Assembly: GCA_951406725.2 (NCBI GenBank)
Contig: OX597816.1
Location: forward strand, 44,268,001-44,332,000
Source of the DNA: Octopus vulgaris
Lineage: Eukaryota
Direction of reading: 5' to 3'
DNA length: 64,000 nucleotides
Part shown: positions 1 to 56,772 of the stretch, piece after piece
Layout of the letters: every line of letters starts with the position of its first letter
How positions within the stretch are numbered: position 1 is the stretch's first letter
Position numbers and translations under genes: made by a program
The notes under the pieces: model-generated
Database searches by the model: none
Seen by the model: only the letters and a program-made list of their open reading frames with translations
Told to the model about the DNA's origin: nothing

Positions 1-221
1 TAAAATTTGCCATTTAGGCATTTACAAAGAGGGGACAAACAAGGACAGACAAATATAAAGGGTGAAGTAGCTTAACACAGTTACAATTTTCGAATGAAAT
101 TACGGATAAGATTATAAACAATGAATTTTACGAAGGCAATGTTTAAAAATATTAATGATCATGTCGAAGGACGGACACCCAGTCATCCGGGTAGAACCTT
201 TACTTTCTGATCCGGTCACAC

Positions 222-3200
222 TTACCTGGTGCCAAACATACCCATCTTGTATGCCACAGGCTTCCATCTTTTCACAAACATATCTCGTGACAGACACCTC
301 TTCTCCAGCCTGATTTTGCTACTGAGGTGGTAACTAAAAAAGTTAATCAACCCCTGGCCGGAGACAAAGGTGCCTGTCACTATACCTTTCGTACGCGTCT
401 TCCATACTGTTTCTTTCAGTATGGCTACTACACAGAAAAAACAAGCCTTTCTTTCCCTGTTAAGGAAAGGGGGCGGCACAATCTCGATGATAGACTCAGC
501 TGATAGCTGTACTCTTCCCATCACTGATAACAGTTGTTCAACAAAAGCTATCAGTCCCGATAACTCCGGACACTCCACGAATGCGTGCAAGACGGTCTCC
601 CTATCCTGCTCACATCGCGGGCATGTCGGCGAGACGGCACTACCGTGCCTTGACAGCTTGTCGCGAACAGGTAAAGCCGCACGGAAACACTGCCAGGCCA
701 GGGATTTCTGGTAATTATCCAGATACCCCGGCCCGAACGTCCTCCGGAACAGGTTGACCAACTGATTTTCATCGTAGCCCAGGGTCTCCCCCAAGGCTTC
801 TTCGGACTTAATCTCCACTAACCCGCTATAGAAATCCGTGGTGGAACTCCTGTTGCCGGCGTTGCCCACCCGAGATAGTAGCTGGAGCGCCTGACGGCAC
901 TCCAAATGCCATTCACTCAGTTTAGGTCTCCGCTTGATCCATGCACCGATGTCCGTTAGGGATGTTAACTGGGGAAGGTAGAACCGGACGTGCGGTGACC
1001 ACACCTGCTCTCCATCCAGGTAAAGCCAGAGGTGCCTCAACCTTAACGCGAGTTTTCGCATCCTCAGCCAAGGTATCCCTAGTCCACCCTTTAGCGGTTT
1101 CTGGCAGCAGACAGAGCGCTTTACAAGTGGCTTTCCTCCTTTCCACAAAAATCGGAAAAGGATTCTCTCCAACTTGTTCAGCCATAAATCGGGGCAAGGC
1201 ACCACGGTCAGACGGTAGGTGATTACTGATGCTATAAACATCTGCACCACCTCTGTCTTCCCTAGCAGGGATAACGCCCGCCCAGACCAGGTCTGGGTTA
1301 GAGCGGTCACCTTGTTGGCCACCTCACTCCAATTTTTCTCAATCTGGAGGTCTGGCCCGAACCAGACTCCGAGCAGCTTAACAGGACCTTCCGTCCAACG
1401 CCCTACGACGTTATTGGACGGCATCGGCTTGCCCCTCCAGGTGCCGAGTTACAAACCGACCGACTTGTCCTTGTTAACCTATGCTCCTGCCACCGCCTCG
1501 TAGCTTTTGATGGCCTCTTCCACCACTGGAAGCTGGCCTTCGTCTGCCACGATGATGGAGGTGTCATCCGCATACGCCGTAGCTCCTCTTCCACACCATA
1601 GATCATGCGGCGCGCCCCCTAGTGCCTCCAACTTCCGCAGCAAAGGCTCAAGAGCCAATACGTATAGGAGCGAGGACAGGGGACACCCTTGACGAACTGA
1701 ACGCTCGATCCTGAACGGCTTAGAAAAGGAACCGTTCACCTTGACTACAAACTCGATGTCGCTATACAAAGCAGCGATCCAGCCTCGAAAGGTCGGGCCT
1801 AGGCCAGCCTCTCCGAGGACCGCCGCCAGGTACCGATGGTCGACCCTATCAAATGCTTTGGACTGGTCTAAATGTACCAATGCTCCCCCTGCGCCAGAAA
1901 GCTTCCCCACCCTCTCTAAGGAGTAGCGTATAAGGTGGAGATTGTCGTGGATCGTTCTGCCGGGGATAGCGCACGTTTGCGCATCCCCGACAAGTTTGTC
2001 CACGACCCGCGCCAACCTTTTTGCTAGCACCTTGGCCAGAATCTTTATCTCTGTGTTTAACAGAGTTATGGGCCTGAAGTTCCCTATCTCGTCCCCCTTG
2101 TTCGGGTCCTCCCTGATCAACGTCACCGCCCCCGGCTCGCAGACTTGGGAATTCTCCCATTCTGCTGCCAGTTGGCGTAGACGCTAGCCAGCAGGTGCCC
2201 GAACAAGTCTGGCATACTTCTATAAAATTCATAGGGCAGACCATCGAGACCCGGCGACTTCTCCCTGGGGCACTTGCCCAACACCTCGATTACTTCCTCG
2301 GCTGTGATTGGCCCTTCACAGCACTCAGCCTCTCGTGTCGAGAGGCGCGGGCCACCAGACAGGAAGTCCCTAAGGGCCTCACCATGATCCAGCGTCCCGC
2401 ACCTCCCGAACAACTCGGCGAAGTGCTTGTGAAGTGCCTCACACATCTCGTCCCGCTTCTTGATCGTGCATCCGTTTTCATCAACAAGAGACCCAATTGT
2501 GGCATCGTTTCCACGCTGTGTTTCTATCGTACGGGCCCATCCGGCAACATTAATTCCCTCACGGCCCAATGCTCGTACTTTAGCCCGGACTCTACATCCC
2601 TCATGTTTGGTTTTGAGGTGACGGTCTAATGCCGTTCTCGCCGCTAAAATGTGAGATGCAGAGCCCAACCTCAACGCCTCCTCTAAGTTCTTAACTAGTT
2701 GCCCTTCTATTCTAGCCCTATCTAGTCTTAGTTGTTTACTAAATCTAATGGACTCGAATCGAATGGCTCTTTTGAGGGTGAACCACCACCGGTTATTAAC
2801 CACGGCTCCGGTTAACGCCCTCTGCACTAACACCTTAATCCGGCTACGGTATGCCTCGCGTGTCAAAATAGACTTGTTCAGCTTCCAGTAGCCGGTTCCT
2901 ATCTTAAATGTGCTATCTATGTCCAGTCTACACGTGACCATTCTATGGTCAGTATAGGGCACCTGGACGAGCTGTGGACAACTGAAACTAGACTTATCTC
3001 TAGTTCTTATCACTATCCTGTCTAGGTAAGACTTGAACCTTCCGTCGCCACTCATCCAGGTCCACTCTGGGACGTTCGGATGGTCAAGTCTGTAACGATC
3101 TGCCAGCTGAAACCGCTTAAGCAGATCCACGAGACGTGAGTTCACTTTCCTATAGATCGAGCCAACGCTATCGATGTGTACGTCAACGATAGCATTAAAG

Positions 3201-3622
3201 TCCCCTAATATCACTAAAGTCTTCGACGTCACGAGAAAGCCCTCTAGGCGCCGATAAAAATCAGTTTGGAAGCCTCTAGCACAAGGTGCATATAGTCCGA
3301 TCAACCTGAAGGCCTTACTGCTGTATGTCACATCAAGGACGACCAGCCCACCTTCTGGGTCTACATAGACTGTACTTGTCTGTAGAGCCAAGTCTTTACG
3401 GATCAGTACCACTACGCCCCCTCGCCCTCCGGTCTGGCCAGGAGACATGATTTTCTCGTAGCCATTTAGGAGAGGCGAGAAGGTTTGTAGGCTGTCCAGC
3501 TTGGTCTCTGTAGCAACCATCACATGTATATTATGTGATCTGAGGTCGTCGAGGAAACAAGCCTGCTTCCACTTCGAACTCAGACCACGCACATTTAAAC
3601 AACCAAGGTTAAGCGAAGCCAT
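222..3622 (-). CDS. Tx1 ORF2 (APE endonuclease, reverse transcriptase, CCHC finger), split by two frameshifts near 2125 and 1480
   Basis: ORF 2123-3622: LNVRGL, ATETK, GDFN, LDR, TDH, GYWKLN, KSPGLDGLPYEFY. ORF 1479-2126: NFRPITLLNTEIKILAKVLA, LDQSKAFDRVDH, RQGCPLS, AYADD. ORF 222-1424: KLLGVWFG, GGLG, CPRC..ETVLHAFVEC. Confidence 0.93.
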
Positions 3623-3639
3623 TACAAAAAGTAAAAGTT

Positions 3640-5063
3640 CTACTTACGTTTCGTTGGAGAGGTGGGGGCCGACCTCGCCACACGTTTGTGGGCCCCTTCT
3701 TTCTCCTCTTTCTTCAGATAGTCCGGCAAGTTCGCGATATGCCGGATGGCGTTTGGGTGTCTGTCTTTTAATTGTTTGAACGTTGTTTCCGCAATCCACG
3801 CGTGTCTATTTCGATCTTTGTATTCGTTGTACAGTCTTGCTGACTGATGCTGAACCACAATATCGTTTATGTATTTGTCTTGTGTGTCGAATTCAATTAA
3901 TATGAGTTCATTTTCTTTTTTGTTTTTTTTTCTGGGCCAGTTGAGCGGGATTTTTTTTCCGTGTCTGTTGTGTGTCTTTGTTTTTATTACTTTTTGTAGG
4001 GGATGTGGACGGGGATGCTGCACGAATTCTTTTACGAACTGGTGTAAATCACCCCTCTGATACCTCCATGGTATCGTCTGGGGTGGCAATGGTTTGTTCG
4101 GTAGGCGCCGCAGTTTTTAGGGGGGTGGGAGGTTTTAATAGTGTAGGGGTTTGTGAGTGCGAGGGCTGGGTTTTTTCTTCAGTCTGTTTTGGGGTTGGCA
4201 CCGTAACAGCGGGAGTGGGATTTTTTGTTTTTGTAGGGGTAGGTGTGTTTGCCAGGGTAGGAACTTTTTTATTATCTGAGGGGCCTGGTGTCTGCGGTTT
4301 CTTTTGCTTGTCGGGACAGTCTACACGAATGTGGCCCTTTTTGCCGCAGGCGTAACAGGTGGGTTTTCGGCCTTCGACCTGTACCCTGAGGGCTACGTCT
4401 CGCCCACGAGCACCCTCTCAGGAAGGAGCTGCAGGTCCTCCGCTGTTCCTTGAATTAATATATTAATGTTACGCCCGAGCCAAAATCGAGGGGTAGAGCA
4501 TATTACTTCTAGTATTTTTATTTTGTCCGCCCTTTTATATAATAGGGCGGCCACTACCTCTACCGGATCGACTTCCGGCGGGGCTTCTACAATCCTGACC
4601 CGGGACGTCCTGCGTCCCCTATAGCTTGGAAAAAGTACCACCTCCTTGGTTTTTAGGGGGTTTACAGAATGCCCGCGGGCCATTTCTTCCCCGAGAAGCG
4701 GACATCCACTGTGCCATATGCCCGTCCCCTGGCGACGTACACGATGTCCTTCCAAATCGGGGACAGGCATTTCTCGATGGTACTTTTTTCAAAGTGTTTG
4801 AACCTTCTGCTTTGTGGACAGAAAGTTTTAAACACTACGGTCCGCTTCTCGGTCTCCACGATACTGGCGGAGGGTGATATTTTAACATCACTACCCTCCT
4901 CTTGCATTTTTTTAAATAGCTCGACGAGCTGGTTGACATCGATATCAATTTTCTCGGTAGCCACTGCGGCTACCTCAGAAAATTTTTTAACATTGCTCTC
5001 CTCAAGAGCACTACTTTCGTGAATAATTTCAACAGACATTATTCTGTTGAAATTAGACAACAC
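3640..5063 (-). CDS. Tx1 ORF1, gag-like nucleic-acid-binding protein with CCHC knuckle; frameshifted
   Basis: Pieces 4662-5063, 4393-4770 and 3640-4089, plus the knuckle VEGRKPTCYACGKKGHIRVDCP read on the minus strand near 4313-4380. Ends 17 nt before the ORF2 ATG. Confidence 0.85.
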
Positions 5064-5445
5064 AAAAATTACGAGTATTGGTTTCCCACAAAACTGGGAA
5101 ACCTATAGAAAGTTTTTCTTCCAAAGTAGTTCAAAAAAGCAGTTCAAAAATTCCAATTCCCACCCCCATTCGGGGGAGGGGCATGAAATTAGTCTGGCAG
5201 GACTATGTATAGTCACGTAAATAAAAAGCCACAGTGGCTAACAGTTCAACGGTAAGAAATTATTCAATTATTTCCCGGTAAAACCGGAGAACAAGACAGT
5301 TCAGCAACGTTTAAAGGCAAATTTTCAGTAGTAGGAATTCAACAATTAACAACACAGCAAAACTCTTACCGGGAAGAAAACGCGTCCACACCGTAGTACG
5401 GTAAGCAAAGTCACTCTTCTGTCAGTGAGGTTAGCAAAGCTACTT

Positions 5446-7445
5446 TATTTTATATAATTTGCCACTAGGGCAGCACACAGAGTAGTAGCTACGGGCTGGA
5501 CAAGGACATTAATGGATGATGGTGGTGGTGGATGAAGATGGTGATGGGAGAAGTCGAAAGCGCCCGCCGACTTTCGCTTCTCTAAAACAATGTTTCAATA
5601 AATACATTTAATAAAATGTTCACAATGATTCAAATTACATAAAAAATGTTCAACAATTCTTCTCGTCAGGTCCCCGAAGCAAATTGTCTTGCCGCCTGCA
5701 GACAACTCTGCGACGACAAGTCGGGGCCTGCAAAGAGAAAGGTAAAGTCTTTCTTTTCAAAGGTCTCTGCGACCCTTGACAAAGTATCTTCTGTTACTTT
5801 TTCCGCAGCTACCTGCGGAGGCCATAACGGACTCCTTGAGCCGACCGTGCCCTTACGCTCTCGGTCACCCAAGCCATTCAAGAATCTTTCCACCTCCTCT
5901 CCCTTGTGGTAAAGGAGGAGAAGCATCTCCTCTTCACAGGGAGGGACTCACACTGCTCCGTCAGTGGCACACTTCCTACTGGCGGAGCCTTGTCCGCGGG
6001 TGGCACACATCCCACCCGCGGCTCCGTCGGCGACACAGAAACGTCAGTCGTCCGACCTCTCCTTTTTCTCCTCCTTCTTTTGGGGGAGACTGCTGACCCA
6101 GGGGACTCCGTCACCAGACACGGGGGATTGCTATCCCCCTTCGCCCCCTGAGCGTTCTTTGGCGGGCAACCATTGTTGCTCGCCTTTCTCTTTCTTTTCG
6201 TGGAGGCAACCTCCTCCACGACTTCCATCGTCTCCCCCTCCAATGAGGGGGCGGCGGGCGCCTTTTCCCCTCTCTGCTCCGGGGCACCACCACGGCCCCT
6301 GGGACAATTCTTCCTGATATGTCCGGGCTTCAGGCACAGGTGACACTTGGGGGGGCGACCCTCGAGTATCACCGGGTACCTGTGCCCAGCCATTCTCAGG
6401 AAGTCCGGGAATTTCATTTCTCCCACGGCTACCGGTGTCCACAGGGTCAAAGTTGCCCTCGACCCCTGCCAGGCGACCGCGGGAGCCACCTTCACACTCA
6501 GCAGTCTGGGTCCGCTATCCCCCAGGCCTCGCCGGATGGTCTTCTCGATCCATTCCGCCTCCGTGCCCGGGGGCAGCCCACACACCCAGGCTCTTTTCAC
6601 TTTTCTGCCACAATACGAGGGGAGGAACAAAATTTCCTCTCCCTCCAGTGGCTCGCTAGCAAATCTGCTAGCTTCCTCGGGGGTACCAAACAGCAACCAC
6701 ACCGTTGCAAATTTAGTCCCACGAGAAATAAATTTTATAGTTGGCAGGTATTCCCCCAACTCTTTCTCTATAGTATTCCTGTCGAAGAGGGCAATGGCTC
6801 CACGCGACCTAGAATAGGTTCGTAGGACCACCGTCCTCTTCTCAAGACTTTCAATCCACTGCTTGGGTGGGACGACCTCCCATTCCAAAGCGGTGGTTTC
6901 TTTTGTTGCCATGTTTTTTGTTTTTTTTTGTTTTTTTTTTATAAATAAATGTATTTAGAATAAAACTAAAAAACGAGAAGAAAAGGAAATCCGAAGAAAG
7001 TCACAATGAAAAAAGGAGAGAGTCAAATAAAGTTGAAAAGAAAGTCAAATAAAGTTAAAAAGAAAGTCAAAAACACAGGAAAATCCTTTTGGCCATTTGG
7101 TACTCCCGGCCTAAATCGAACCAGGATCGCACAACTTCCACAAAAATTGGTGTAAAATTGGTAGTTCTTCACAGCACCATACAATTTTCACAATTCGAAG
7201 ACGGATACGCCCCCAAAAATTTTCTCAGCGAGAAAAATATATCTGCCACATGTCGGCAGAATCAGAATTCTGAATCCAGTAGGACTTCCTGCATGTAAAA
7301 AATAATTCTCAACAAAAACTCCCACTGGACACAGAAAACAGAATCTTATCTTACATGGGGCTTCCAAAGTTTCAATTCAAGACGGCTTCAAAAGCACATC
7401 TTCACTGCTTCAGTAGCAAACACAACACTGACTCGCACATGCGCA
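5446..7445 (-). mobile_element. ORF1-only non-autonomous Tx1-derived retroelement (element 2, about 2.0 kb)
   Basis: Flanked by target copies at 5430-5445 and 7446-7461. Has a 5' UTR, ORF1, a 3' hairpin TGCC-CTAGT-GGCA and an A-rich end. No ORF2 sequence recognisable. Confidence 0.85.
5666..6912 (-). CDS. Gag-like ORF1 of element 2 with CCHC knuckle; probable frameshift near 5920
   Basis: EKRTVVLRTYS, LFLPSYCGRK and LEGRPPKCHLCLKPGHIRKNCP align with element 1 ORF1 (EKRTVVFKTF, LFPSYRGRR, VEGRKPTCYACGKKGHIRVDCP). C-terminus probably continues in ORF 5666-5926. Confidence 0.85.
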
Positions 7446-7461
7446 GTTAGCAAAGCTACTT

Positions 7462-8933
7462 TATTTCAACTATTTTGCCATAAAGGCATTACATAGAGGG
7501 GACACTACAAAAACATGTGGAGACATATAACAATTAAAAATAAAATGATACTGTGAGTGACATGAAAATGAACGTGAGAAAATAAATTAAGTTTATGATA
7601 ACATGCATGATATCTGAAAATGAAATATGAAATATGACGAGTGTGCTACTCACCCCACTTTGAGCAACACCACTCGCTGCCTTTGAGTCTGAATTCTTCT
7701 CTAATCTCTGGTCTAGTCCTCCTTTTTCCATTCTCGCTATCGCTTAAAGACAACTTTCTTTCGCAACCTTTTTCACCGGGGGAGGGGTTTTCTGAATTCT
7801 GTGGTGTCTGCTCTTTTTTCTTTTTCTTTTTTTCTTGTGGGGAAAGGGTGTGGGTGGGTCTGGTGTCTTTATGGGGCGGGTGGGTCTGAGTGGTCTTGGG
7901 TGGGATGGAGTTGGACTGGGGTACAATTTCACACTCAGTGTTCTTTCTTTTCTTCCTCTTCTTACTTCTGCTCTCTGCTACTATCCATTCTACCTCCTTT
8001 CGTCCGTCTTTGTCTTCGTCCTCTTTTTCTTCTTCTTTGTCTCCGCAACTGGTTCATCTATTTTTTCCTCTTTTTCTTCTGTAGGGGGCAGTGTGCTCTA
8101 ATGTGGCCTTTTTGGCCACATTTAAAGCACCGCGGGGTTCTGCCTTCTACCCATACTCTCAGTACCATTTCTCCCACTGACACCGTTTCCGCCAAATTTT
8201 CCAGCTCCTTCGCCTCCGCTTGTATGGTCATTTCCAGTAATTTTCCTTTGTAACTTCTTTCCTCTGTCTCTGTGGCTTGGAGGACAGTCACCTCCTCACT
8301 TCCAACGAGGACGGCTGCCGCAACCCAAGCCACCTTTATGTCAGGTGGAATTCCTTCTACCCTCACCTTAGAATTTTTTCTTCCAAGATAAGAGGGTAGA
8401 AGCACCAGTTCCTCAGCTTTTACGGTTGCACTTGCCAGCCTCCTCGCCTCCTCCTCTGTTTTAAACTGGACAACCACCGTCCCATATCCGCTTCCGTTTG
8501 CTATGTATGTTACTTCGTTCGAAAGCCCCTTTTTCTATTTTTTCCATATTCATCTGCTCCACTCTCCTACTCTCCACTGAGTGCACCTTGTAGGTGATGG
8601 TTTTCCTTTCCATATTCACCATGACCGTTTTCGGGGGTAGTAACTTTACGTCACTTCCCACCTTCTGTGTCATCTTATACAGCTCCTTCAGTTCAGTCAG
8701 GTCCACTTCCTTTCTCTTCACTCCCGCCGCGTCAGCAAAACTCTTCATTTTCTCCAAATGTTGGTCCATCCTGTTCACCGCCTTAACGAGCTCCTCCTCA
8801 GATGTGGACAGCTCGTACTCGCTAAGGTCCGAATACATTATTTTCCACTCGCCAACAAACCGCTGGCGAGCAGCTCAAAGGATTCTGTCCGCCTAGTCAA
8901 AACTTGACACAGTAAACAACTCGACGCATGCGC
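7462..8933 (-). mobile_element. ORF1-only non-autonomous Tx1-derived retroelement (element 3, about 1.47 kb)
   Basis: Flanked by target copies at 7446-7461 and 8934-8948. About 95-nt 5' UTR, ORF1, and 3' tail GTCCCCTCTATGTAA-TGCC-TTTAT-GGCA with an A-rich end. No ORF2. Confidence 0.85.
7744..8838 (-). CDS. Gag-like ORF1 of element 3; frameshifted; C-terminal boundary uncertain
   Basis: 8461-8838 (KSFADAA..GSDVK..ERKTITYK..SRR..IEK) aligns with element 1 4662-5063. 8058-8477 has LLPSYLGRK and VEGRTPRCFKCGQKGHIRAHCP. Confidence 0.83.
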
Positions 8934-8971
8934 GTTAGCAAGCTACTTACCACACAGCCACTCCTGCGCCT
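8934..8971 (-). mobile_element. 5' head of tRNA-derived SINE family A, interrupted by the Tx1 array
   Basis: Reverse complement AGGCGCAGGAGTGGCTGTGTGGTAAGTAGCTTGCTAAC matches the start of SINE copies at 52811, 30897 and 42133 (minus). Confidence 0.9.
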
Positions 8972-10129: not shown

Positions 10130-11757
10130 TATGACTTTTTATTAAACCCAAAGATATATGCATGCAAATAAAAGATTTGAGGTGGAATTAACAAGTAGAA
10201 AAATCATTATCATGAGCCAATATAAAAAGTCATACCTGTTTCGCCATCACTGTTCACTAACTTTAATTCAGCACCGATTTCCAAACGGTGTTGGGTCTAA
10301 TAGCACTTGAGTAAAAAGACTGCATTGCAAAGCAGGTAAGCGGCTCTGAAAATGTTGATTAATAGAGTATAAATGGTATATGGGATGTATGAGGATTAGT
10401 GGGAGTATTGGTATTAATAAGGTTAGTAGTGTCCTGTATTGAGTTCTTTGTTCATAATAAGTTGTGGTTGATATTTGTTACTGAAAGTTGCCTCCTTCTT
10501 TAGCTTTTGCTGCACTGAGGTGTTCCGGAAACATTGATGAAAAGGGGAGATTAGGAAGTTTAGTTTAAGGTTCCTAGCACGTCTATCTATGTGCTCTCTG
10601 ATCTGTATGTGTCTATATTGTCGGAAGCAGATTTGGTGTTTGTGAAGCGTTGTTCTTCGTTTGAGGGACATTCGTTTTTAACCTATATAGTGGTTTCCGC
10701 AACCTAAGCCGGCATTAACATAGATTAGGTTTTCAGAGGCGCAAATGTAATTTCAATTTATCTTAAACATTTCATCTTGTTTGAAGTGAAATTCTGTACT
10801 CTCCAAAAAGTGGCGGCTTGTTCCACACTTAGGTTGCCCACGTTTTTTATAATAATTTCGCTTGCAGTTTGCTCTTGATAAGTTTCTGCAAGTCAAAAAT
10901 TTCATTCATTGTGTTATTCCCAGTGAGAATGGGTAGATTTTGTATGATGATGTTGAATGTCTTATTGATTCTTGGGTTATGTGTGGAAATGTATAGGAGT
11001 ACATTTAAATTTGGGGTAGCATTTCATCTAATTTCCCTTAATGTTTGTATGTCTCATTCCTTTTTTCGTTTAATCTAATAATCTATTAATGCTGTTGGGT
11101 AATGTTTCCTGATTGGTGTTGATTTAAGTTCACGGAGAATTAGCTCACGGGTATTGGTATCCGTAACTGTGGTGCAAATTCTTTTCGCTAGATTATAAGG
11201 TACATTAATTTTTATGTTTGGGGTTACATGAGTTGAATAATAGGTATTGATTTGAATCTGTGGGCTTATAAAAGATGTCCGTTTCGATGTGGTTATTAAC
11301 TATTTTATTTAGGATGTCAAGAAAACGAAGTTGTTTATTGCTGCGTTCCATGGTGAATTGTATGTTGCTATTGATATTGTTGAGCATAATTTTGAAATCA
11401 AGGAATTTGTCCAAGCTAACGTTCCAAAGCATAAAGCAATCTTCTAAGTACCTTTTCCAGCTCTCCATTAAATAGCAATGGAATGAGGTACCATATTTTT
11501 GTTGTGATAATTGCTATATGTTAAGTTATAGATAACGCATAACAAGGTTCACAATCACTGGTGCAGCTCGAGTTCCCATTGCAATTTCACATTTTTGTCG
11601 ATAATAAACTATATCGAACATGAAGCAGTTGTGCTGGAGGATAAATTTCATTCCTGTGATTATGAAGTTGTGTGTGATGCGACCTAGGATCTCTTCTGGG
11701 TATTTTGCTAGCCAGAAACATGATTGTGTTATACCATAATCATGAGGGAAATTGGTT
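10130..11757 (-). mobile_element. Degenerate Penelope-like element (RT C-terminus, GIY-YIG, pseudo-LTR)
   Basis: IAMGTRAAP near 11560; WKRYLEDCF..IQFTME..FLDI..YKPTDSNQYL..S (ORF 11205-11468); NLIY..CGNHYIG near 10690-10735. Confidence 0.85.
10226..10264 (-). ncRNA. Minimal type I hammerhead-like motif with G3-C8 core
   Basis: aaagtta-GTGAACA-g(tgatgg)c-GAAA-cagg-TA-tgacttt. Confidence 0.55.
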
Positions 11758-11789
11758 ATTTATCCATATTAGTGCAAGTTGTACTAATA

Positions 11790-12840
11790 TGTGGATACCG
11801 ACATTCGTGAGCTTAAATCAACACTAATCAAGAAACATTACCCAACAGCATTAATAGAAGATGGGATTAAACGAAAAAAGGTATGAGACATACAAACATT
11901 AAGGGAAATTAACCGAAATACTACCCCAAATTTAAAAGCACTCCCATACATTTCCACACATAACACAAGAAACAATGAGATATTCAACATCATCAAATCT
12001 ACCCATTCTCACTGGAGATATGAACAATGAATGAAATTTTCGTCGCACACTCAATTATCAAAAGCAAAATGCAACCGAAATGATTGAAAAAAATATTAAG
12101 CGTCGCAAGACTATATCCCTTAACAACGGAACCAAAAGGGGAAAAATGCAGTCGGCCTGTGTCACAGGGTTAAATATTTAACAGGCAAGGTGAAATATTT
12201 AAGATAAATTCAAATTTCACTTGCGTCTCTGAAAACCTAATCTATGTTAAAACCTGCTTAGGTTGCGGAAACCACTATACAGGTCAAATGCGAATGTTTC
12301 TCACACGAAGAACAACGCTTCACCAAAAAAAACAAATGTGCTTCCTATATAGATAGATACAGGTCAGTGAGCACATAGATAGATGTGTTAAGAACCTTAA
12401 ACCAAACTTCGTTATTTCCCATTTTTATCAATGTTCCCAGAACATCTCAGTGCAGCAAAGTCTAAATAAAAAGGCAACTTTCATTAATGAATATCAACCA
12501 AATTTAACATGAACACAGAACTCAATACAAGACACTACTAACCGTATTAATATCAATACTCCCACTAACTCTCATACATCCCATATACCATTCATACTCG
12601 ATGAATCATATTAACCTAATTGCATCACTTTCTGAACTGCTTACCACCTTTGCATGCATTCTTTTAACTCAGGTACCGTTACACCTAACACCGCTTGGAA
12701 ATCGGTCTTGATTCAAAGTCAGTGAACAGCGATAAGGAAACCGGTATGACTTTTTATACTAACTCATAATAATGATTTTATACTTCTTAATTCCACCTCA
12801 AATCATTTATTTGTATGTATGAGTTTATAAAAACAAGCCA
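11790..12840 (+). mobile_element. Second, diverged Penelope-like 3' fragment, inverted relative to 10130-11170
   Basis: Reverse-complement similarity to 10130-11170, e.g. tctgaaaacctaatctatgttaa and ttaggttgcggaaaccactata, including the pseudo-LTR. Confidence 0.82.
12715..12753 (+). ncRNA. Minimal type I hammerhead-like motif with G3-C8 core
   Basis: aaagtca-GTGAACA-gcgataag-GAAA-ccgg-TA-tgacttt. 7-bp stem I and palindromic stem III; the stem II closing pair is lost in this copy. Confidence 0.55.
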
Positions 12841-13949: not shown

Positions 13950-14165
13950 ATTTCTTTACTACCCACAAGGGGCTAAACACAGAGGGGACAAACAAGGACA
14001 GACAAACGGATTAAGTCGATTATATCTACCCCAGTGCGTAACTGGTACTTAATTTATCGACCCCGAAAGGATGACAGACAAAGTCGACCTCGGCGTAATT
14101 TGAACTCAGAACGTAACGGCAGACGAAATACGGCTACGCATTTCGCTAACGTTTCTGCCAGCTCG
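13950..14165 (-). mobile_element. SINE family B (tRNA-like head, Nin/Deu-like core, Tx1-like tail)
   Basis: Core GGTCGACTTTG(C/T)C..TCATCCTTTCGGGGTCGATAAA..AAGTACCAG and tail TTTGTCTGTCCTTGTTTGTCCCCTCT...GCCCCTTGTGGGTAGTAAAGAAATA. Many copies in the window. Confidence 0.88.
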
Positions 14166-14188
14166 TACACACAAATAAATAAAAACTT

Positions 14189-14225
<37 letters not shown>

Positions 14226-14639: not shown

Positions 14640-14955
14640 CGCAACTGGTACTTAATTTATCGAACCCGAAAGGATGAAATGCAAAGTGCACCTCGGCGGA
14701 ATTTGAACTCAAAACCTAAAGACAGATGAAATACCTATTTCTTTATTACCCACAAGGGGCTAAACATAGAGGGGACAAACATGGACAGACAGATTATATC
14801 GACCCCAGTGCTTAACTGGTACTTAATTTATCGACCCCGAAAGGATGAAAGGCAAAGTCGACCTCGGCGGAATTTGAACTCACAACGTAACGGCAGCCGA
14901 AATACCGCTAAGCATTTCGCCCGACGTGCTAACGATGCTGCCAGGTCGCCGCCTT
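14640..14955 (-). mobile_element. SINE family B copy with an adjacent partial second copy
   Basis: Same core twice (14645-14735 and 14800-14955), with a tail between them. Confidence 0.85.
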
Positions 14956-14969
14956 TGCTCAATAATATA

Positions 14970-15250
14970 TTATATATTCAAACATGCCCTTCGTTTTGTA
15001 ACTTTTGAGTGAACTTTGAGATGAATTTTGTTGCTATCTCTAGCAAATTTTGCGGACTCGTAGCGAATACCTCGTATTGAATCATATTCGTCAATAAACT
15101 GGCGATATGTTTATATATTTCGTACTGTCTTACAAGCATTGTTATAAAAGAATTCTTTTATAACATACCAGAACCAGAATTTCCGTGCATGTATGCAAAT
15201 ATGTATGTACATATATGAATATATAAACTGTTATATACATATGATATTTT
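14970..15250. repeat. About 270-bp segment duplicated at 18035-18300
   Basis: attcaaacatgcccttcg...gtagcgaatacctcgtattg...ccagaaccagaatttccgtgcatgtatgcaaata occurs at both sites. Confidence 0.85.
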
Positions 15251-15984: not shown

Positions 15985-16311
15985 GAGGTCAACACTCATT
16001 TTGAATAAATTTTACACAAAGTTGGTTTAATGAAAAGACATTACATGACAGTAGTAGTAGTAGTAGTAGTAGTAGTTGTTGTTGTTATTGTTGTTGCTAA
16101 GCAACAAGACGGGTAAGAGTGATTAGGTGATGCGCTAGGGCTTAGGGGCAGGAGACCCCAGACCCTGGGGAAAAAAGCAACTTTGGTCGTCTTGTTGTAG
16201 TCGAGGGCTCTTCGTTGACGCCCGACACCACTGGGAGGTGGCCCTCGAAGTTGGTTTAATGAAAAGACATTACATGGCGGTAATAGTAGTAGTAGTAGTA
16301 GTAGCAGTAGC

Positions 16312-16356
<45 letters not shown>

Positions 16357-16586
16357 TGTTGTTGTTATAGTTGTTGCTAAGCAACAAGACGGGTAAGGGT
16401 GATTAGGTGATGGTCTAGGGCTTAGGGGCAGGAGACCCCAGACCTTGGGAAAAAAAGCAACTTTGGTCGTCTTGTTGTAGTCGAGGGCTCTTCGTTGACG
16501 CCCGACACCACTGAGAGGTCAACACTCATTTTGAATAAATTTTACACAAAGTTGGTTTAATGAAAAGACATTACATGACAGTAATA

Positions 16587-16633
<47 letters not shown>

Positions 16634-16812
16634 TGTTGTTGTTGTTTTTATTGTTGTTGCTAAGAAACAAGACGGGTAAGGGTGATTAGGTGATGGTCCA
16701 GGGCTTAGGGGCAGGAGACCCCAGACCTTGGGGGAAAGAGCAACTTTGGTCGTCTTGTTGTAGTCGAGGGCTCTTCGTTGACGCCCGACACCACTGAGAG
16801 GTGGCCCTCGAA
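15985..16812. repeat. Three tandem units of about 230-300 bp containing (AGT)n/(GTT)n microsatellite
   Basis: aagttggtttaatgaaaagacattacatg...gggcttaggggcaggagaccccagacc...gacgcccgacaccactg recurs three times. Confidence 0.9.
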
Positions 16813-17946
16813 GTCGCTGGAAATGGAGATCTCCAGGTTTAAATTCTTGAACAGCTGCTGTTGCTTCTGGAGATTAGCCCCCAAATGACCTGTGATAAAA
16901 TTCAATCCAGCCATGATTATTTGCTGTAAGTGCCAGACCTTGTGTTCAGTGGACTATATTATGTCCACATTTTTTTTATTACGATTGGACGTGAGTTGGA
17001 GTGGTTATTTCCTGCGCGTACAACGAGATAGAAGTTTCCTCGATTGTTCTTAGAAGCGAAAGATTTCTAAAATGCAGAAGGCCATTATATACCATAATCG
17101 CATAAAATTCCTCTATATGCAGAACAGAAATTGAAGAACATGAACCTTTGATGTCTGCAATAGACATGTAAGGACAATGTGGTGGAAATTTGAAGATGTT
17201 TAGTAAAATATGAATTATAATTGCTATAAAATCGAGACATAGCCATATGCCAAACATGGTAATAAGCCAGAGATTAAAAATATTAAAACTTGTTATATTT
17301 ATCCTTATTATTGTCTTACTACGAGAGTATAACCCGCCATATAACGGGTGATGATGGCTTTTACAGAAATAAGTGCATATTTGCAACAGTCGTTATCTTG
17401 CGTATATTAAAATTCTACGTTGCTGGCGTTTATACAAAATAGCGGGATGAAGACTAATTTTTAAAGTATAAATTATTTATTAGATTAAAATGAGGTGAAA
17501 CGAATTCCTCATTTGTAAATTTGCAATAAATATGCGTAATGAATAATAATTATATTGCTTGACTATCATGTAAATAGTGAACCATACAGACTAATTCCAT
17601 ATAAGGTAGCATAACATTTTTAGAGTGACAACGCACCCAACAATTGAATATCATTTCCAGTAATAACGGATATTTAATACATTCTCATTCTCTATCTTAC
17701 TCCCTCTTTTACACTCTCTGTCCTTCTTCTTCTTCTCTCTCTCTATCTCTCTGATAATGACATAACAAATAGAATTACGCGCATGATCTACTACTTTGAA
17801 CTGTGAACACACACATACATACCGCATTAAACTCCTCATTCATACTGTATGTATGTATATATATATGTATATATATATGTGTGTGTGTGTGTGTGTGAGT
17901 GTATATATATATATGTATACATATATACATATATATGTGTGTTTAT

Positions 17947-24424: not shown

Positions 24425-24880
24425 GGGCTGCGAGCTGGCAGAATCGCTAGCTTGCTGGGTATAATGCTTGGTGATATCTCGCCCTTCTATATTCTGAATT
24501 CAAATTCCGCCGAGGGGTTGATGAAATAAGTACTGGGGTCGATTTAATCGTCTTATCTGCTCCCCAAAATTTCCAAAATTTGAAACCGATATTAAGCTTG
24601 CTGGGTATAGTGCTTGGTGATATCTCGCCCTTCTATATTATGAATTCAAATTCCGCCGAGGGGGTTGATGAAATAAGTACTGGGGTCGATTTAATCGTCT
24701 TATCTGCTCCCCAAAATTTCCAAAATTTGAAGCCGATATTAAAGACGTATATAAGTCAGCAGAATCGTAAGCATGCGAGACAATGCTTAGGGGCAATTCA
24801 TCCGTTTTTACGCTACGAGTTCAAACTACACTGGTGTCAACTTTGCCTCTCATCCTTTCGGGGTCGATGAAATACATACC
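24425..24880 (+). mobile_element. Diverged SINE B-type fragments with an internal duplication of about 147 bp
   Basis: gcttgctgggtata..gcttggtgatatctcgcc...ccccaaaatttccaaaatttgaa..ccgatattaa occurs twice, followed by a further Nin-like core. Confidence 0.75.
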
Positions 24881-25684
24881 AGTTGATTACTAGGGATGAT
24901 GTAACCGACATACCCACTTCCTCAAAATTGCTTCATACTCTACAACGACCCGGTCTTCTGATGTTTTCTCTCGTTTGTATCTATTAATGCATTTCTATCC
25001 ATTAAACTCTTTCTGTGTCATTGCTGGCAACAGTGAAAAGAAACAAAATCTTCCTTTTCCCCCTCTGTATTTCTTCCTTCAGTTGATTACTAGGGATGAT
25101 GTAACCGACATACCCACTTCCTCAAAATTGCTTCATTCTCTACAACGACCCGGTCTTCTGATGTTTTCTCTCGTTTGTATCTATTAATGCATTTCTATCC
25201 ATTAAACTCTTTCTGTGTCATTGCTGGCAACAGTGAAAAGAAACAAGATCTTCCTTTTTCCCCTCTGTATTTCTTCCCTCAGTTGATTACTAGGGATGAT
25301 GTAACCGACATACCCACTTCCTCAAAATTGCTTCATACTCTACAACGGCCCGGTCTTCTGATGTTTTCTCTCGTTTGTATCTATTAATGCATTTCTATCC
25401 ATTAAACTCTTTCTGTGTCATTGCTGGCAACAGTGAAGAGAAACAAAATCTTCCTTTTCCCCCTCTGTATTTCTTCCTTCAGTTGATTACTAGGGATGAT
25501 GTAACCGACATACCCACTTCCTCAAAATTGCTTCATACTCTACAACGACCCGGTCTTCTGATGTTTTCTCTCGTTTCTATCTATTAATGCATTTCTATCC
25601 ATTAAACTCGTTCTGTGTCATTGCTGGCAACAGTGAAAATAAACAAGATCTTCCTTTTCCCCCTCTGTATTTCTTCCTTCAGTT
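24881..25684. repeat. 200-bp tandem repeat, 4 copies
   Basis: agttgattactagggatgatgtaaccgac starts at 24881, 25081, 25281 and 25481. The unit begins inside a SINE 3' part. Confidence 0.95.
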
Positions 25685-27640: not shown

Positions 27641-29395
27641 TTGATTGATTGATTGATTGATTCTAGTTTCAGCTTATGAGCTGTGGCCATGCTGGGGCAC
27701 CGCCATTTGGTGTTGCTACTTGGTTTCACTTCATGGAGGCTTTCTAGCAACTGCTATTTGGTGCATGAGAGAGTTCGATGCAGCTGCCCTCATCTGCCCC
27801 TCCTGCCGTGAAGTTGGTTCATCTGGGACACCTGACAGGAAGAGATCCAGCTTCATTTTAAAGACATCTGTATCCACCCCATGCAGGTCTCTCAGGTTCT
27901 TCGGGAGGATATTGAAGAGCTGTGGGCCTCGGAAGCCCAGGCTATCACAGAATCTTGTCCTACATCTTGATGGCAGGTTTGGAGTCCTAGGCACCACGCA
28001 GTGGCGCCCAGTTCTGGCATTTGCGTAACTCTCGATGCCAAAGTTCAGGACACTTCCCTCCAGGATCTTCCAGATGTATATTATGGCATATCTTTCCCGC
28101 CTACGCTCCAGGGAATATAATTTTAATCTCTTGAGTCTTTCCCAGTAGCTTACATTCTGCATAGAGGCTATCTTCTTTGTGTAGCTTCGTTGGATCGCCT
28201 CAAGTTCTGTGATCAACTTGACGCTGGATGGTGACCATAGCTGAGAGCAATAGTCAAAGTGGCTTAGGACAAGTGTCTTCCAGAGGACCATCATGGTTTC
28301 TTGTTCTCTTGTTCTAAAGGTTCTAAGAATCCATCCAGCCAGCCGTCTACATTTCATTGTCAGTTTAGCAACATGTACATGAAAGGTCGCGTCATCACTC
28401 ATGTGAATACCCAGGTCACGCACTGATTGTGCCTCTGGGATTGCAATCCCTCCGGGTCCAGTGTATTCATTGGGTATTGCATTCAGTTTTGCATGCTGAT
28501 AGTATAAAGCTTGAAACTTTCCAGCATTGAACTGCATGCTATTCTTTTCAGCCCACTTGTATATTTCGTCCAGCTCACATTGCAGGTGTTTAGTGTCCTC
28601 AGGGTTCTGTATTGCCTGTGAAACTTTGTATCATCTGCATAACTTGTGATCGTGGCTCTCTGCGTGGCTGAGGGCATGTCTGAGAGGGCCATTATGAACA
28701 GTAGTGGTCCCAGAACAGTGCCCTGCGGAACACCGCTCACTATTTGTGTGTTAATGGAGGTGGCCCCATTGGCTACTACCACCTGACTTCTATCCTTCAG
28801 AAAGTCATGAAGCCATTCTCCCAGTTTTCCAACTATGTTGAGATCACGCAGTTTGTGACATATCATTCCATGATCGACTTTATCAAAGGCCTTTGCAAAG
28901 TCGAGATATATCACTTCCACATTTGAGTGGTTGAGCAGCCGTTTCAGTACCCAGTCATAGTGTTGTAGGAGCTGAGTTAAACAGCTTCTCCCTGGTCGGA
29001 AACCATGTTGGGTGTCGGGCAGCAAGTCATTCTCTTCAAGGAAGGTGATCAGCTTCCTTCTGACTATTCGTTCCATGACCTTGCTGATGTGTGAGGTCAG
29101 AGAGATAGGTCTATAGTTCTGGGCTTCCGCTCTGCTACCTCCTTTATGAATGGGGCATATTTTACCTTCCTTCAGTTTTCCTGGAAGTTTGCCAGCTGCA
29201 AGGAAGCTCTGAAAGAGGAACTGCAGTGGTCTTGCTAGGACTCTCTTACATGCTTTTAGGAGGATTGCCGGGAATCCATCGGGGCCAGTAGCTGAGTCTG
29301 TTTTCATTTCACCTATAGCCTTGGTTACATCGTCTTCCTTTATATCGATGTAATCTATCGTCGCCGCCTCTGATTTTATATCTGCAGTGGTAAAA
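27641..29395 (-). mobile_element. 5'-truncated CR1/L2-group LINE (RT to 3' end) with (AATC)n tail
   Basis: SATGPDG, NYRPISLTS, QHGFRPGRSCLTQL, YLDFAKAFDKVDH, SGVPQGTVLGPLLF, YADDTK, RDLG, LEAIQR, YWERL..LYSLERRR. One frameshift near 28620. Confidence 0.92.
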
Positions 29396-29937
29396 AGAAA
29401 TATAAATATAATCAACAGGTAACTTTGGTTAGAAGCTTTAATAATATAACATCCAAAATATAACAAGATATATATTTCAAATTCAGTAGAGTAGGAAAAC
29501 TATATTATAGAAAAAAACAAGAACTTATATTCACAATTGGTTATAGCAATATTATACAATATGGTAAACACTAATATTATAGCAATATTGTATAATATAG
29601 CAAACGTTCCAGGCTTCATGGTTAAGTATGTAACCATTATAATTCAATCGGCGTTTATTAGAGAATAACGCTAACAACAAATACGTCCACTGAATAGTTG
29701 AAGTGTGGTTTGTAGTTTGCCGGACAGAAATATCATCCAATTAAGTAACCACATATTTCATCGTTGAGATTTCCCAGACTTACATATGTAATATTACTGG
29801 ACACTAGTTATTTATCATCAATAACAGCCTCCTAGCAATAGCCAAACATTTCCAGCGAAGCATACATAACCTTGTCGTTAGAATCATTAATGGTAAATAT
29901 TTCAACTTGAAGGCGACAGAGAAAGAAAATGAGAGAT

Positions 29938-30286: not shown

Positions 30287-30615
<329 letters not shown>

Positions 30616-30895
30616 TATATATATACACACACATTTATATTTATAATATATCGTTCTTTTCCTTGATATATTGTTTTAGAACGTTTAACATCCAAACCGC
30701 CAAGGATCGGCTAGAGAAACCGAAATAGCAACCAAAATCTCTTTCATCACTCGTACTTGTCATACGAAACGAAGAACACATTGAATAATATAATTCTGAT
30801 TATATATGTTTCTACACAGAAACAACTGCAAATGCTCAAATATCCAATAGCAATTGTTCTCTTCCATTACAGGAATATAACAGAAACACTAACAT

Positions 30896-34111: not shown

Positions 34112-34805
34112 GAGAGAGAGAGTGTGTTAGGTGTGGTGTACAGATATTGAATATTGAGAAAAGACGTCACCAGAATTTGGGCAAAAATCTTTTTATTTAT
34201 TCATTACTAATAGCGCTTTCGTTCTTTTTTCGGATTTGTCAAATAAAACTTTTTGAATGTTCAAGCAGCTTGTTCATTTATATAAAACAGATGTTTTGGT
34301 GGGGTTTTGTGTAGAAGAGGAGAACATGGGTTCTGTTTTTTTGGGGGTGAGGTTCCAGGACATTTGGAGATAGATAGATAGAAAGATAGGTAAGTAGGTA
34401 CGTTGATAGATAGGTAGATAGACAGATAGATAGAGAGAGAGTGGGAGAGTGAGAGGAGGGGACGGGGTATCCCCTTTCTATTCACCATTCATTCATTTAG
34501 TCATTTACCATTGTATTGAAATGGGTTTAAGGATGGTGACCACTTCAACAAAAGAAACAGGTGTGGTGTGGTTATCACTGAATATCTTTTTGCTTTCTTT
34601 CTCCATTTTTACCACTTTTTGTCTTCTTTCTTTATCCTTTTCTTCCTTTTTTCACCTCTTTCCTTCTTTTTTCTCCTCTTTCTTTTGCTCCTCTTTGAAT
34701 TATATTTAGACTACAAAATGTACTGTCTCCGCTTTTCTTTCAAACTGTCAATTTTGGAGAGAATTTGTTGAGGAAATGTAGTTCCAGTGCTTTTCGATAT
34801 TGCAG

Positions 34806-35038
34806 GGCGGCGAGCTGGCAGAAACGTTAGCACGCTGGGCGAAATTGCTTAGCGGTATTTCGTCTGTCGTTACGTTCTGAGTTCAAATTCCGCCGAGGTC
34901 GACTTTGCCTTTCATCCTTTCGGGGTCGATAAATTAAGTACCAGTTACGCACTGAGGTCGATGTAATCGACTTAATCCGTTTGTCTGTCCTTGTTTGTCC
35001 CCTCTGTGTTTAGCCCCTTGTGGGTAATAAAGAAATAG
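34806..35038 (+). mobile_element. SINE family B
   Basis: Full head, core and tail. Confidence 0.9.
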
Positions 35039-35039
35039 G

Positions 35040-35330
35040 TATTGCAGATCGTCCCGTGCACATTTGTAAAAGGGAAAAATTTTGAATTTCCCGTCACTGC
35101 ATATTTCCAGATGCTTACTTAATGGAATCTTGCGCAATTTCTCTTGCCGGATATGTTTCCTGTAGATTCCTGCAGAGGGAATTATTTGTTTCGCCAATGT
35201 AATTTTCTTTATAGTTTGGGCAGGTGATGCTGTATACTGGGTTTTGCAGTTCATATCTGCATTTATTTTGAAAAGGGATCTGCTCTTGAATTTTATGTGG
35301 AATCCACTTCCTAATATTTAAAGTTGTTGT
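35040..35330 (-). mobile_element. Penelope-like GIY-YIG fragment
   Basis: QNPVYSITCPNYKENYIGET (ORF 35115-35360), followed by HLEICSDGKFKIFPFYK. Confidence 0.7.
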
Positions 35331-51300: not shown

Positions 51301-51346
51301 CTACACAGTGGCTGTGTAAGCTACGAAATCCTTGTCGCCCCTGTTA
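45387..51346. repeat. Satellite array, 56-bp unit, about 106 copies
   Basis: Unit TGTTATATCGCAATACTACACAGTGGCTGTGTGAGCTACGAAATCCTTGTCGCCAC, with 54-bp and substitution variants and no unique spacers. Confidence 0.98.
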
Positions 51347-51754
51347 TGTCGCTCGTTCGAATGCCTTCTACTCAACTCTACTCTCCTCCTCTCCACTCTA
51401 TATCTACGTATTGGGCTAGCCTACTTCATCGACTGGGGGCGTCCACACAACAGTAAGTCACTGCAAGACTGCTTTGCTCATGGTTTTTACCAATCACCAT
51501 CAAAATGAAAATAAAAACCAGCAACAACAATAACAACGACGTTGGTGGCAACATCATCAACTAAACAAGAGCGACAAAGATGCCTACAAGAACATCAACA
51601 ACAATGCGAACCACAGCAAGATTACAGATATATACTTAATATTTATGAGTGTGCATCATACGGCAAAGGTAACACATTTCATACGATAAAGCTTTGCATG
51701 TCGAAACATGCACCATATTTCTGTGCGGGAGCTTGATATATATATAAATATATA

Positions 51755-53243: not shown

Positions 53244-53422
53244 ACAGTAGTTGCCAAATTTGTAATAAATAAAGGTAGATATAGTGAGTTTTATTTTTCT
53301 ATTTTGATGGAGGGATGCAGAAGTTTCAAGGAAGTTAATAAATGGAGGATATGAAATGACGAGCGTTGTGAGAGATGCTAACTAGGAGATGAATCAGTTC
53401 AATGACGAAAGATGATGCACAG

Positions 53423-53655
53423 ATGGCGAGCTGGCAGAAACGTTAGCTCGCCGGGCAAAATGCGTAGCCGTATTTCGTCTGCCGTTACGTTCTGAGTTCA
53501 AATTCCGCCGAGGTCGACTTTGCCTTTCATCCTTTCGGGGTCGATTAAATAAGTACCAGTTGCGCACTGGGGTCGATATAATCAACTTAATCCGTTTGTC
53601 TGTCCTTGTTTGTCCTCTCTGTGTTTAGGTCTTTTGTGGGTAGTAAAGAAATAGA
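53423..53655 (+). mobile_element. SINE family B
   Basis: Full head, core and tail. Confidence 0.9.
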
Positions 53656-55567: not shown

Positions 55568-55609
<42 letters not shown>

Positions 55610-55898
55610 GTACTACTACTACTACTACACCTACAACAACTACTACTACTACCACCACCACCACCACCACCACCACCACCACCACCACCACCACCACCAC
55701 CACTACTACTACTACTACTACAACTGTACTACTACTACTACTACTACTACTTACCACTACTACTACGTTCACCTACACTACAACTATCGCCTGAACCGCC
55801 AACACCACTACTAGAACTGCCACCAGCTCAGCTACCTTTATAAATGAAATAACTGCTACGGCTGCCAACATCACATACTACCACTATTACTACTACTT

Positions 55899-55965
<67 letters not shown>

Positions 55966-56009
55966 CACCACCACCACCACCACCACCACTACTACTACTA
56001 CTACTACTG

Positions 56010-56041
<32 letters not shown>

Positions 56042-56264
56042 ACCACTACTACTACGTTCACCTACACTACAACTATCGCCTGAACCGCCAACACCACTAC
56101 TAGAACTGCCACCAGCTCAGCTACCTTTATAAATGAAATAACTGCTACGGCTGCCAACATCACCTACAACCACCACTACTTCTACTACTACTACTTCTAC
56201 TACTACTACTACTACTACTACTACAACAACTACTACTACTACCACCACCACCACCACCACCACC

Positions 56265-56297
<33 letters not shown>

Positions 56298-56544
56298 GTA
56301 CTACTACTACTACTACTACTTACCACTACTACTACGTTCACCTACACTACAACTATCGCCTGAACCGCCAACACCACTACTAGAACTGCCACCAGCTCAG
56401 CTACCTTTATAAATGAAATAACTGCTACGGCTGCCAACATCACCTACTACCACTATTACTACTACTTCTACTACTACTACTTCTACTACTACTACTACTT
56501 CTACTACTACTACAACAACTACTACCACCACCACCACCACCACC

Positions 56545-56589
<45 letters not shown>

Positions 56590-56772
56590 GTACTACTACT
56601 ACTACTATTACTTACCACTACTACTACGTTCACCTACACTACAACTATCGCCTGAACCGCCAACACCACTACTAGAACTGCCACCAGCTCAGCTACTTTT
56701 ATAAATGAAATAACTGCTACGGCTGCCAACATCACCTACTACCACTATTACTACTACTTCTACTACTACTAT
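55298..56772. repeat. Five tandem units (about 280-440 bp): conserved block of about 135 bp plus variable (ACT)n/(ACC)n
   Basis: cgttcacctacactacaactatcgcctgaaccgccaacacc...ttataaatgaaataactgctacggctgccaacatcac recurs near 55325, 55766, 56055, 56335 and 56627. Confidence 0.93.

Follow-up and report, generated by a model that had tools for sequence, protein, structure and literature searches.

Two elements that encode only an ORF1 protein, E3 and E2, stand directly in front of a two-ORF LINE, E1, in a 64,000-nucleotide stretch of Octopus vulgaris DNA (the window). This raises the question of whether they are separate, long-lived families that borrow the ORF2 protein of another element, or one-off deletions of two-ORF LINEs. 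We consider it likely, at a probability of about 0.85, that E2 and E3 represent two old ORF1-only non-autonomous lineages parasitizing a site-specific LINE of the L1/Tx1 group, the E1 lineage. On the minus strand the units run head-to-tail in the order SINE head, E3, junction, E2, junction, E1, junction and SINE body, and a single SINE encloses the entire array; its head occupies 8970-8934 and its body restarts just past window position 1. The features are as follows.

8934..8970, minus strand: tRNA-like 5′ head of the target SINE, with an A-box-like motif, ending at the head-side junction (from the sequence; the same head precedes most copies elsewhere)
7461..8933, minus strand: E3, ORF1-only element, 1473 bp
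7646..8838, minus strand: E3 ORF1, with three indels in this copy near 8531, 8086 and 8030; open form 400-408 aa
8088..8129, minus strand: E3 CCHC zinc knuckle (Pfam zf-CCHC, E 1.7e-4)
7476..7488, minus strand: E3 terminal hairpin, 4-bp stem and 5-nt loop; AAATAA follows after 8 nt, without poly(A)
7446..7460, minus strand: E3/E2 junction, made up of duplicated target and a few bases resembling it that the E2 5′ end brings
5445..7445, minus strand: E2, ORF1-only element, 2001 bp
5666..6912, minus strand: E2 ORF1, open for 344 aa and then frameshifted near 5947; open form 414-415 aa
6304..6345, minus strand: E2 CCHC zinc knuckle (Pfam zf-CCHC, E 0.02)
5460..5472, minus strand: E2 terminal hairpin
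5430..5444, minus strand: E2/E1 junction, duplicated target
1..5429, minus strand: E1, two-ORF LINE of 5437 bp, its end 8 bases past the window start; presumed ORF2 donor family
3640..5039, minus strand: E1 ORF1, frameshifted in the window copy
4357-4316, minus strand: E1 CCHC knuckle
222..3622, minus strand: E1 ORF2, with APE endonuclease, reverse transcriptase and zf-RVT; broken in this copy
8-20, minus strand: E1 terminal hairpin

The target SINE may be of tRNA origin, as judged from A- and B-box-like motifs spotted by eye; neither ARAGORN nor Rfam returned a tRNA match in it. It also holds a CCTTGGG motif as in CORE/Ceph domains (PMC5786205, in part). Genome-wide there are 58,747 exact empty sites, a lower bound, and about 1.4% of targets are occupied, the occupied and empty counts both being lower bounds. 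The insertion point is flanked by the two box-like promoter motifs, and a SINE copy that is hit would be expected to fall silent.

The initial annotation had described elements 2 and 3 as units with a 5′ UTR, a CCHC-bearing ORF1, a short 3′ UTR and the LINE-type terminal hairpin, but lacking ORF2, and this layout was found in both. The 5′ UTR measures 95 nt in E3 and 533 nt in E2, the 3′ UTR about 185-220 nt in either, and E2, E3 and E1 all end in a TGCC-N5-GGCA hairpin. A tblastn search with an open 1133-aa ORF2 against 98 units shorter than 3 kb (some copies counted twice) found no ORF2 remnant in E2 or E3; the sole matching unit was a 5′-truncated two-ORF copy at another locus. The ORF1s had been called full-length, which holds for their extent, but both window copies are interrupted: a single frameshift lies after the knuckle in E2, and E3 has three indels. 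Homopolymer errors are an unlikely source of the 8- and 28-nt losses in E3. The window copy of E1 is broken by several indels.

As had been proposed, the three ORF1s can be aligned but are strongly diverged, at 24-32% identity (26-28% for E2-E3, 32% for E1-E3 and 24-29% for E1-E2). The UTRs, described as unrelated, do fail to align at E < 0.01 over most of their length, but their last 38-45 nt are 79-84% alike and GCGCATG starts both E2 and E3; one further 20-nt match is at chance level. In Pfam the ORF1s matched zf-CCHC and, weakly, RRM_3 (E 0.013), with no L1 ORF1 match, and a PDB profile search returned knuckles only, with L1 ORF1p absent from its matches. ESM look-alikes (0.90-0.93) included ZCCHC3-type RNA-binding domains (0.90), and there are weak hints of a possibly RRM-like fold. 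The closest database protein to E2 ORF1, and the only homolog found, is an uncharacterized Octopus sinensis protein with 61% identity. A bacterial promoter scan, irrelevant to this DNA, gave no match.

Both elements are multi-copy with a fixed ORF1-to-tail junction. The DNA searches for E2 and E3 scored 37-40 candidates each, 37 of them for E2, and yielded at least 20 full-length E2 matches at 94-100% identity and at least 19 delimited E3 units of 1388-1507 bp, which differ from the window copy by 0.6-21.5%. For E1, a query with its 5′ 2.4 kb gave at least 38 matches at 97-100%. E2 and E3 copies occupy dispersed internal sites on many chromosomes, and older E3 copies lie in an older-looking variant of the host SINE. 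Median pairwise distances are 1.7% for E1 and 1.6% for E2; the two are equally young. Mosaic haplotypes occur among the E2 copies. The initial annotation had suggested checking whether the frameshifts vanish in a consensus or in short reads. ORF1 is open in 4/30 E2 and 2/19 E3 copies, and contigs from sequencing runs showed other copies without the breaks near 5947 and 8531, but most copies are broken (26/30 and 17/19). Contigs from runs under three organism labels covered all 30 bins, and E2 was joined directly to the SINE head in contigs of three runs. Among 20 copies of E1, ORF1 is open in two, ORF2 in three and both in one. The tail-plus-target pattern had 805 exact matches and its reversed control 0; the ends of the first 30 matches belonged to ORF1 in 20 cases, to ORF2 in six and to neither in four (several within one array). 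Arrays also contained further families with ORF1 only, measuring 1.45 kb and 2.0-2.3 kb and differing in their 5′ ends.

Intact 3′ ends run straight into AAGTAGCTT, with no poly(A), in 26/27 E2 and 20/22 E3 copies, which places 46/49 at the same target. E1 copies end at this target and SINE body in 20/20 cases, above the criterion for target specificity of more than 20% of flanks in PMC4494074 (in part). Three 5′-truncated E2-group copies (L147, L160 and L167) are bounded by head and target, and since the 5′-truncated copies meet the SINE head at about AAGTAGCTT(G), the target duplication is about 9-10 bp. In full-length copies, the element itself brings the 4-7 bases that follow. Where both ends were seen (48 sites), TAAC at the head stood against TTAC/TTAT at the body in 12 cases and the reverse in one (p = 0.003), and an extra base occurred at the junction 10 times on the head side and 0 times on the body side. 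The element RNA probably has its start just within the target remnant and would anneal there during second-strand synthesis. Across 10 family tails, 92.5% of the cells of the tail hairpin are paired, above all slid controls, and three of its four pairs show double changes. Related families at other targets also carry a similar hairpin, so it marks the lineage and not the site; being lineage-wide and only 4 bp, it cannot by itself name the ORF2 donor.

Stacks of elements reach nine units at one site. Divergence is 2.5-13.5% among the E1 partners behind E2 and at most 4.4% among the E2 copies, so E1 and E2 did not arrive as co-copied pairs. The partner is often older than the E2 it stands behind, members of one array fall in different haplotype groups, and a one-base junction variant runs through arrays of different haplotypes and families (7/7 junctions in one, six in a row in another), having been handed on locally. 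From these older partners, mixed haplotypes and the inherited junction variant we deduce that arrays grow by sequential insertion at the head-side junction; in the window the most likely order of insertion was E1, then E2, then E3. Alternatively, ORF1-only RNAs could have been added by template jumping or as read-through dimers instead of by self-initiated insertion, which would explain the arrays. Most E2 copies are in arrays, two near-identical pairs lie within one array (0.05-0.1%), and mosaic haplotypes together with mosaic ORF1s point to template switching. However, solo full-length and 5′-truncated copies exist (10/24 loci are solo), the partners are often much older than the E2 in front of them, and a junction variant spanning an array is expected from repeated local target duplication; we regard this origin as improbable.

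Two simpler schemes were also set aside. Co-copying of dimers is not supported, as partner ages differ and the distances of E2 and of its F5-family partners are uncorrelated (rho 0.07, p = 0.31, n = 8), a result that argues against co-copying yet gives no support to heritable neighbor choice. Simple tandem duplication of arrays does not fit the spread of members over different haplotype groups, despite two near-identical pairs.

The families differ in how often they re-use occupied sites. In position-ordered pattern matches (the first 100 of 122), which miss arrays with an extra-T junction, another element lay behind the tail at 14/24 E2-type loci (22/32 copies), one of the 24 really being an E1 variant, against 4/68 E1-type loci (6 if two unclear ones are counted). 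The contrast has p = 3e-7, or 3e-6 with the unclear ones counted. E3-type tails had an element behind them in 4/7 cases, and the rate for E1, too, is slightly higher than expected by chance (4/68, p = 0.014). Such a contrast between elements expected to share one endonuclease is our most surprising result. BLAST-ranked counts, which put E2 in front of another element in 17/20 copies or 15/18 loci, were discarded for possible bias to arrays. Separately, E2 haplotype group sorted with partner type (8:0 versus 0:5, p = 0.0008), a hint only, as the grouping was made post hoc and is confounded with age.

E1 has a Tx1-type architecture of two ORFs, with APE, RT and a C-terminal zinc domain in ORF2, and among solved structures its ORF2 came closest to L1 (L1 ORF2p at E 1e-66, against R2 at E 1e-19). 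"Tx1-like" is used here as a label by architecture, with no named Tx1 reference among the E1 homologs. Eight ORF2-bearing copies were seen at the target, and their best matches are 67-99% like E1 ORF2. Because the ORF2-bearing copies at the site all resemble E1, and E1 and E2 are equally young, the E1 lineage is the likely donor of an ORF2 protein borrowed in trans. The donor might instead be another related LINE family, since a similar hairpin is found in several related autonomous families, which are abundant (616 ORF2 starts). Against this, the endonuclease determines target choice (PMC4494074, in part), of the two other autonomous families with a full reading, one is at an (ATT)n repeat and one at another sequence, and the ORF2-bearing copies at the SINE site all resemble E1. 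We therefore think a different donor quite improbable.

We calculated dN/dS by the Nei-Gojobori method, using our own script, over the ORF1 core of naturally open frames only. Ratios were 0.10-0.27 in the E2 group (28 pairs) and 0.12-0.18 in the E3 group (6 pairs), with bootstrap upper bounds of at most 0.51, and dS reached 1.2-2.3, near saturation; the low-complexity C-terminal half was looser (0.19-0.80). Purifying selection has thus acted across deeply diverged ORF1-only families. Some ORF1 pairs are mosaic, with a dS between E2 and family F4 of 1.57 in front and 0.12 behind. In the ORF1 tree the E2 group, including the O. sinensis protein, had support of 100/100 and the E3 group 96/97. Sampled members number at least eight in the E2-group clade and four in the E3-group clade; every one is from an ORF1-only unit, and there is no two-ORF member in either. 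AU tests rejected neither a single origin of both groups (p = 0.324), nor E3 with E1 (0.149), nor all three together (0.221), and the tree ties neither ORF1-only lineage to E1 (AU p 0.149-0.324).

The two-ORF elements were sampled through the 616 matches of the ORF2-start pattern, from the first 100 of which 14 non-E1 variants were followed up. An ORF1 was present in 10/14; these ORF1s were 23-34% identical to that of E2 and mostly 28-50% to that of E3, and no two-ORF element in this partial sample (14/616 ORF2 starts) had an ORF1 close to either. The E3 ORF1 is 41-50% identical to a family at another target and 32% to E1, thus as close or closer to that family. On sequence grounds, both ORF1-only lineages are old and without a close two-ORF parent in the partial sample.

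E2 and E3 could still derive from two-ORF LINEs by internal deletion, either once only or recently, with divergence and selection that predate the loss of ORF2, given that the sampled two-ORF diversity is 14/616 ORF2 starts and that 37-40 candidates were scored per DNA search. This would require ORF2 to have been lost many times in parallel and all the parents to be missing, while the two supported clades are entirely ORF1-only in the sample; the best two-ORF ORF1 in the sample is 23-34% identical to that of E2, no ORF2 remnant was found, and the E3 layout is kept over 21% divergence and across the older SINE variant. Such deletions are very unlikely. Copy number, the fixed junction, selection and the two clades instead bear out the earlier view of long-lived, separate ORF1-only families; single-copy elements with close ORF1s only in two-ORF LINEs, its opposite, were seen in neither part, as the close ORF1s sampled occurred only in ORF1-only units. 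That the ORF1s are host-domesticated genes or passive riders with the SINE, as purifying selection, the annotated O. sinensis protein and the ZCCHC3-type look-alikes might suggest, is extremely unlikely and largely refuted by copy decay and truncation, most copies being broken, dispersed, bounded by target duplications and some 5′-truncated, with head-side and body-side junctions that vary by locus.

We propose that each ORF1-only element would carry an internal promoter of its own, from which transcription would start within the 5′ target remnant, a few bases in. Its own ORF1p, with a conserved core of about 200 aa and one knuckle, is under selection and would coat the RNA, presumably as a chaperone. 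The ORF2p of the E1 family would bind the common hairpin-AAATAA tail in trans, nick the SINE head at AAGTAGCTT(G) and copy the RNA by target-primed reverse transcription. This would leave the pattern seen, namely a duplication of about 9-10 bp, 5′-truncated copies, and full-length copies with element-borne 5′ junction bases. Later elements would insert in front of earlier ones because the head-side junction stays a target.

The least certain step is that ORF1-only families re-use occupied sites far more than E1 does. In R1-type elements, read-through RNA pairs with the target. Pairing of RNA read through beyond the tail with the nicked target is the cause of the re-use that we favor, if tentatively, and would make neighbor preference heritable. 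Steering by the element's own ORF1p is unlikely, and both open chromatin and template jumping or co-copying are more doubtful still. HeT-A Gag steers its partner to telomeres, and there is a small chance that ORF1p similarly redirects the borrowed endonuclease/RT to already occupied sites, a "safe, pre-disrupted haven", which would also account for these lineages retaining an ORF1p. If true, this would be a non-telomeric case in which the ORF1p of a hyperparasite, and not the common ORF2p, sets a second level of target choice.

LINEs of the HAL1 or HeT-A kind raise the question of why ORF1 is kept, one for which HAL1, being old, is a difficult test case. The octopus genome combines young families, partly open, with a probable ORF2 donor and one defined target, and the roughly tenfold difference in re-use of occupied sites offers a direct readout for swapping ORF1, tail or read-through sequence. 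The families further show that ORF1-only lineages can last to synonymous saturation, diversify into many families and outnumber the host LINE at its target.

Our literature search, with most subscription journals outside it, found no ORF1-only Tx1-type or SINE-targeting octopus elements, and the available parts of PMC9115989 and PMC3747384 hold nothing on this ORF1-only system. Thirteen recently active L1-Tx1 families are reported from O. vulgaris, without structure or targets in the part of the paper covered (PMC13282606), and the present families may already stand in Repbase or in the curated library or supplements of that study. Target-specific LINEs of the Tx1 clade include Tx1L in Tx1D, Keno, Kibi, Koshi and Tx1-Mar, with transposons, snRNA/5S genes and microsatellites as listed targets, and SINEU is a non-autonomous partner with a common target and tandem copies around the duplication (PMC4494074, in part). 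E1 resembles these LINEs as an APE-RT element at a fixed site in a repeat, but its tRNA-like SINE head is not among the listed targets and adds to those of site-specific LINEs. SINEU encodes no protein, unlike E2 and E3, in which a protein under selection is retained.

HAL1 has a poly(A) tail and dispersed insertion, and mammalian L1-type ORF1p has a coiled coil, RRM and CTD without a knuckle. E2 and E3 likewise code only for ORF1p, but differ in their CCHC knuckle, lack of an L1 ORF1 Pfam match, lack of poly(A), site specificity and youth. HAL1 proper is excluded, as their ORF1 is not L1-type by Pfam and PDB profile and AAATAA runs straight into the target. The analogy with HAL1, a non-autonomous L1-group derivative with ORF1p only and several origins (PMC5753468, in part), thus stands in function but not as membership, and HeT-A-type elements are equally close. 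HeT-A, HAL1 and Ag-Sponge are ORF1-present non-autonomous LINEs of the Jockey, L1 and CR1 clades, respectively (PMC5786205, in part). Of the families of telomeric Jockey-clade elements in Drosophila, about 40% have ORF1 only, and new lineages of this kind descend from existing ones (bioRxiv 10.1101/2025.06.09.658640, in part). Like E2 and E3, HeT-A-type elements are ORF1-only, site-restricted and arranged in head-to-tail arrays mixed with two-ORF partners, but they belong to the Jockey clade and lie at chromosome ends, whereas E2 and E3 are of the L1/Tx1 group, at an internal SINE site with target duplication and no evident host benefit. Ag-Sponge of Anopheles is comparable in keeping ORF1 but differs in clade, and we know of no site specificity for it. 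ORF1-only LINEs are therefore already known as a kind; E2 and E3 work like HAL1 or HeT-A while being a member of neither, and our literature search found no L1/Tx1-group version that targets a SINE.

Two-ORF families related to E1, the two-ORF LINE at the start of the window, were found at other sites in the genome. In the family at L170 (G000:C1:202325000-202333300), ORF2 is 53-63% like that of E1, and the copies form head-to-tail arrays of ~5.9 kb located at an (ATT)n microsatellite. Another, at L171 (G000:C1:157643800-157651300), is arranged in tandem units of 5.26 kb with a flank different from that of the L170 family, and its ORF1 is 41-43% alike to the ORF1s of the group of E3, an ORF1-only element.

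A second tRNA-like SINE of ~250 bp, distinct from the SINE whose head is the shared target of E1, E3 and the other ORF1-only element, E2, was present in seven copies in the window:

13977-14200, second SINE
14764-15000, second SINE
30360-30620, second SINE
34780-35040, second SINE
53395-53655, second SINE
57130-57390, second SINE
62640-62900, second SINE

Over 30 nt, its 3' end matches the E1 3' UTR at 90-97%, and its terminus is a hairpin resembling that of E1. This SINE accounts for the very high depth seen over window positions 1-302. The nearest-looking tail was that of the L171 family, which is a candidate mobiliser of this SINE. At L098/L153 (G000:C21:41.61 Mb), a second-SINE copy occupies the head-side junction of the target, ahead of a truncated ORF2-bearing copy.

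Other repeats in the window were as follows:

10945-11995, MITE-like inverted repeat, 90% complementarity between two arms that are each at least 190 nt long and lie ~670 nt from one another (the right arm may extend beyond the scanned end)
16050-16814, tandem repeat, 280-bp unit
24449-25684, tandem repeat, 147/200-bp unit
27731-29499, minus strand, a further LINE fragment, broken, that carries an RT domain (Pfam RVT_1, E 8e-26)
45387-51352, satellite, 56-bp unit, ~100 copies, 94% alike
55587-56771, tandem repeat, 289-bp unit

Four copies of the target SINE in the window carry no insertion:

21033, empty target SINE
30903, empty target SINE
42127, empty target SINE
52818, empty target SINE

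At L131 (G000:C1:39262062-39265091), the same target holds a ~100-bp insertion in which the 5' end of F5, a family met as an array partner of E2, is joined to the F5 tail; this may be a non-coding bipartite derivative.

E2, E3 and F5 all open with the word GCGCATG/CATGCGC:

8933-8927, 5'-end word of E3
7445-7434, 5'-end word of E2

Such 5'-end words could possibly act as an internal promoter exchanged among families. The GCGCATG/CATGCGC start resembles an NRF1-type site, and other families open with ETS- or CRE-like words.
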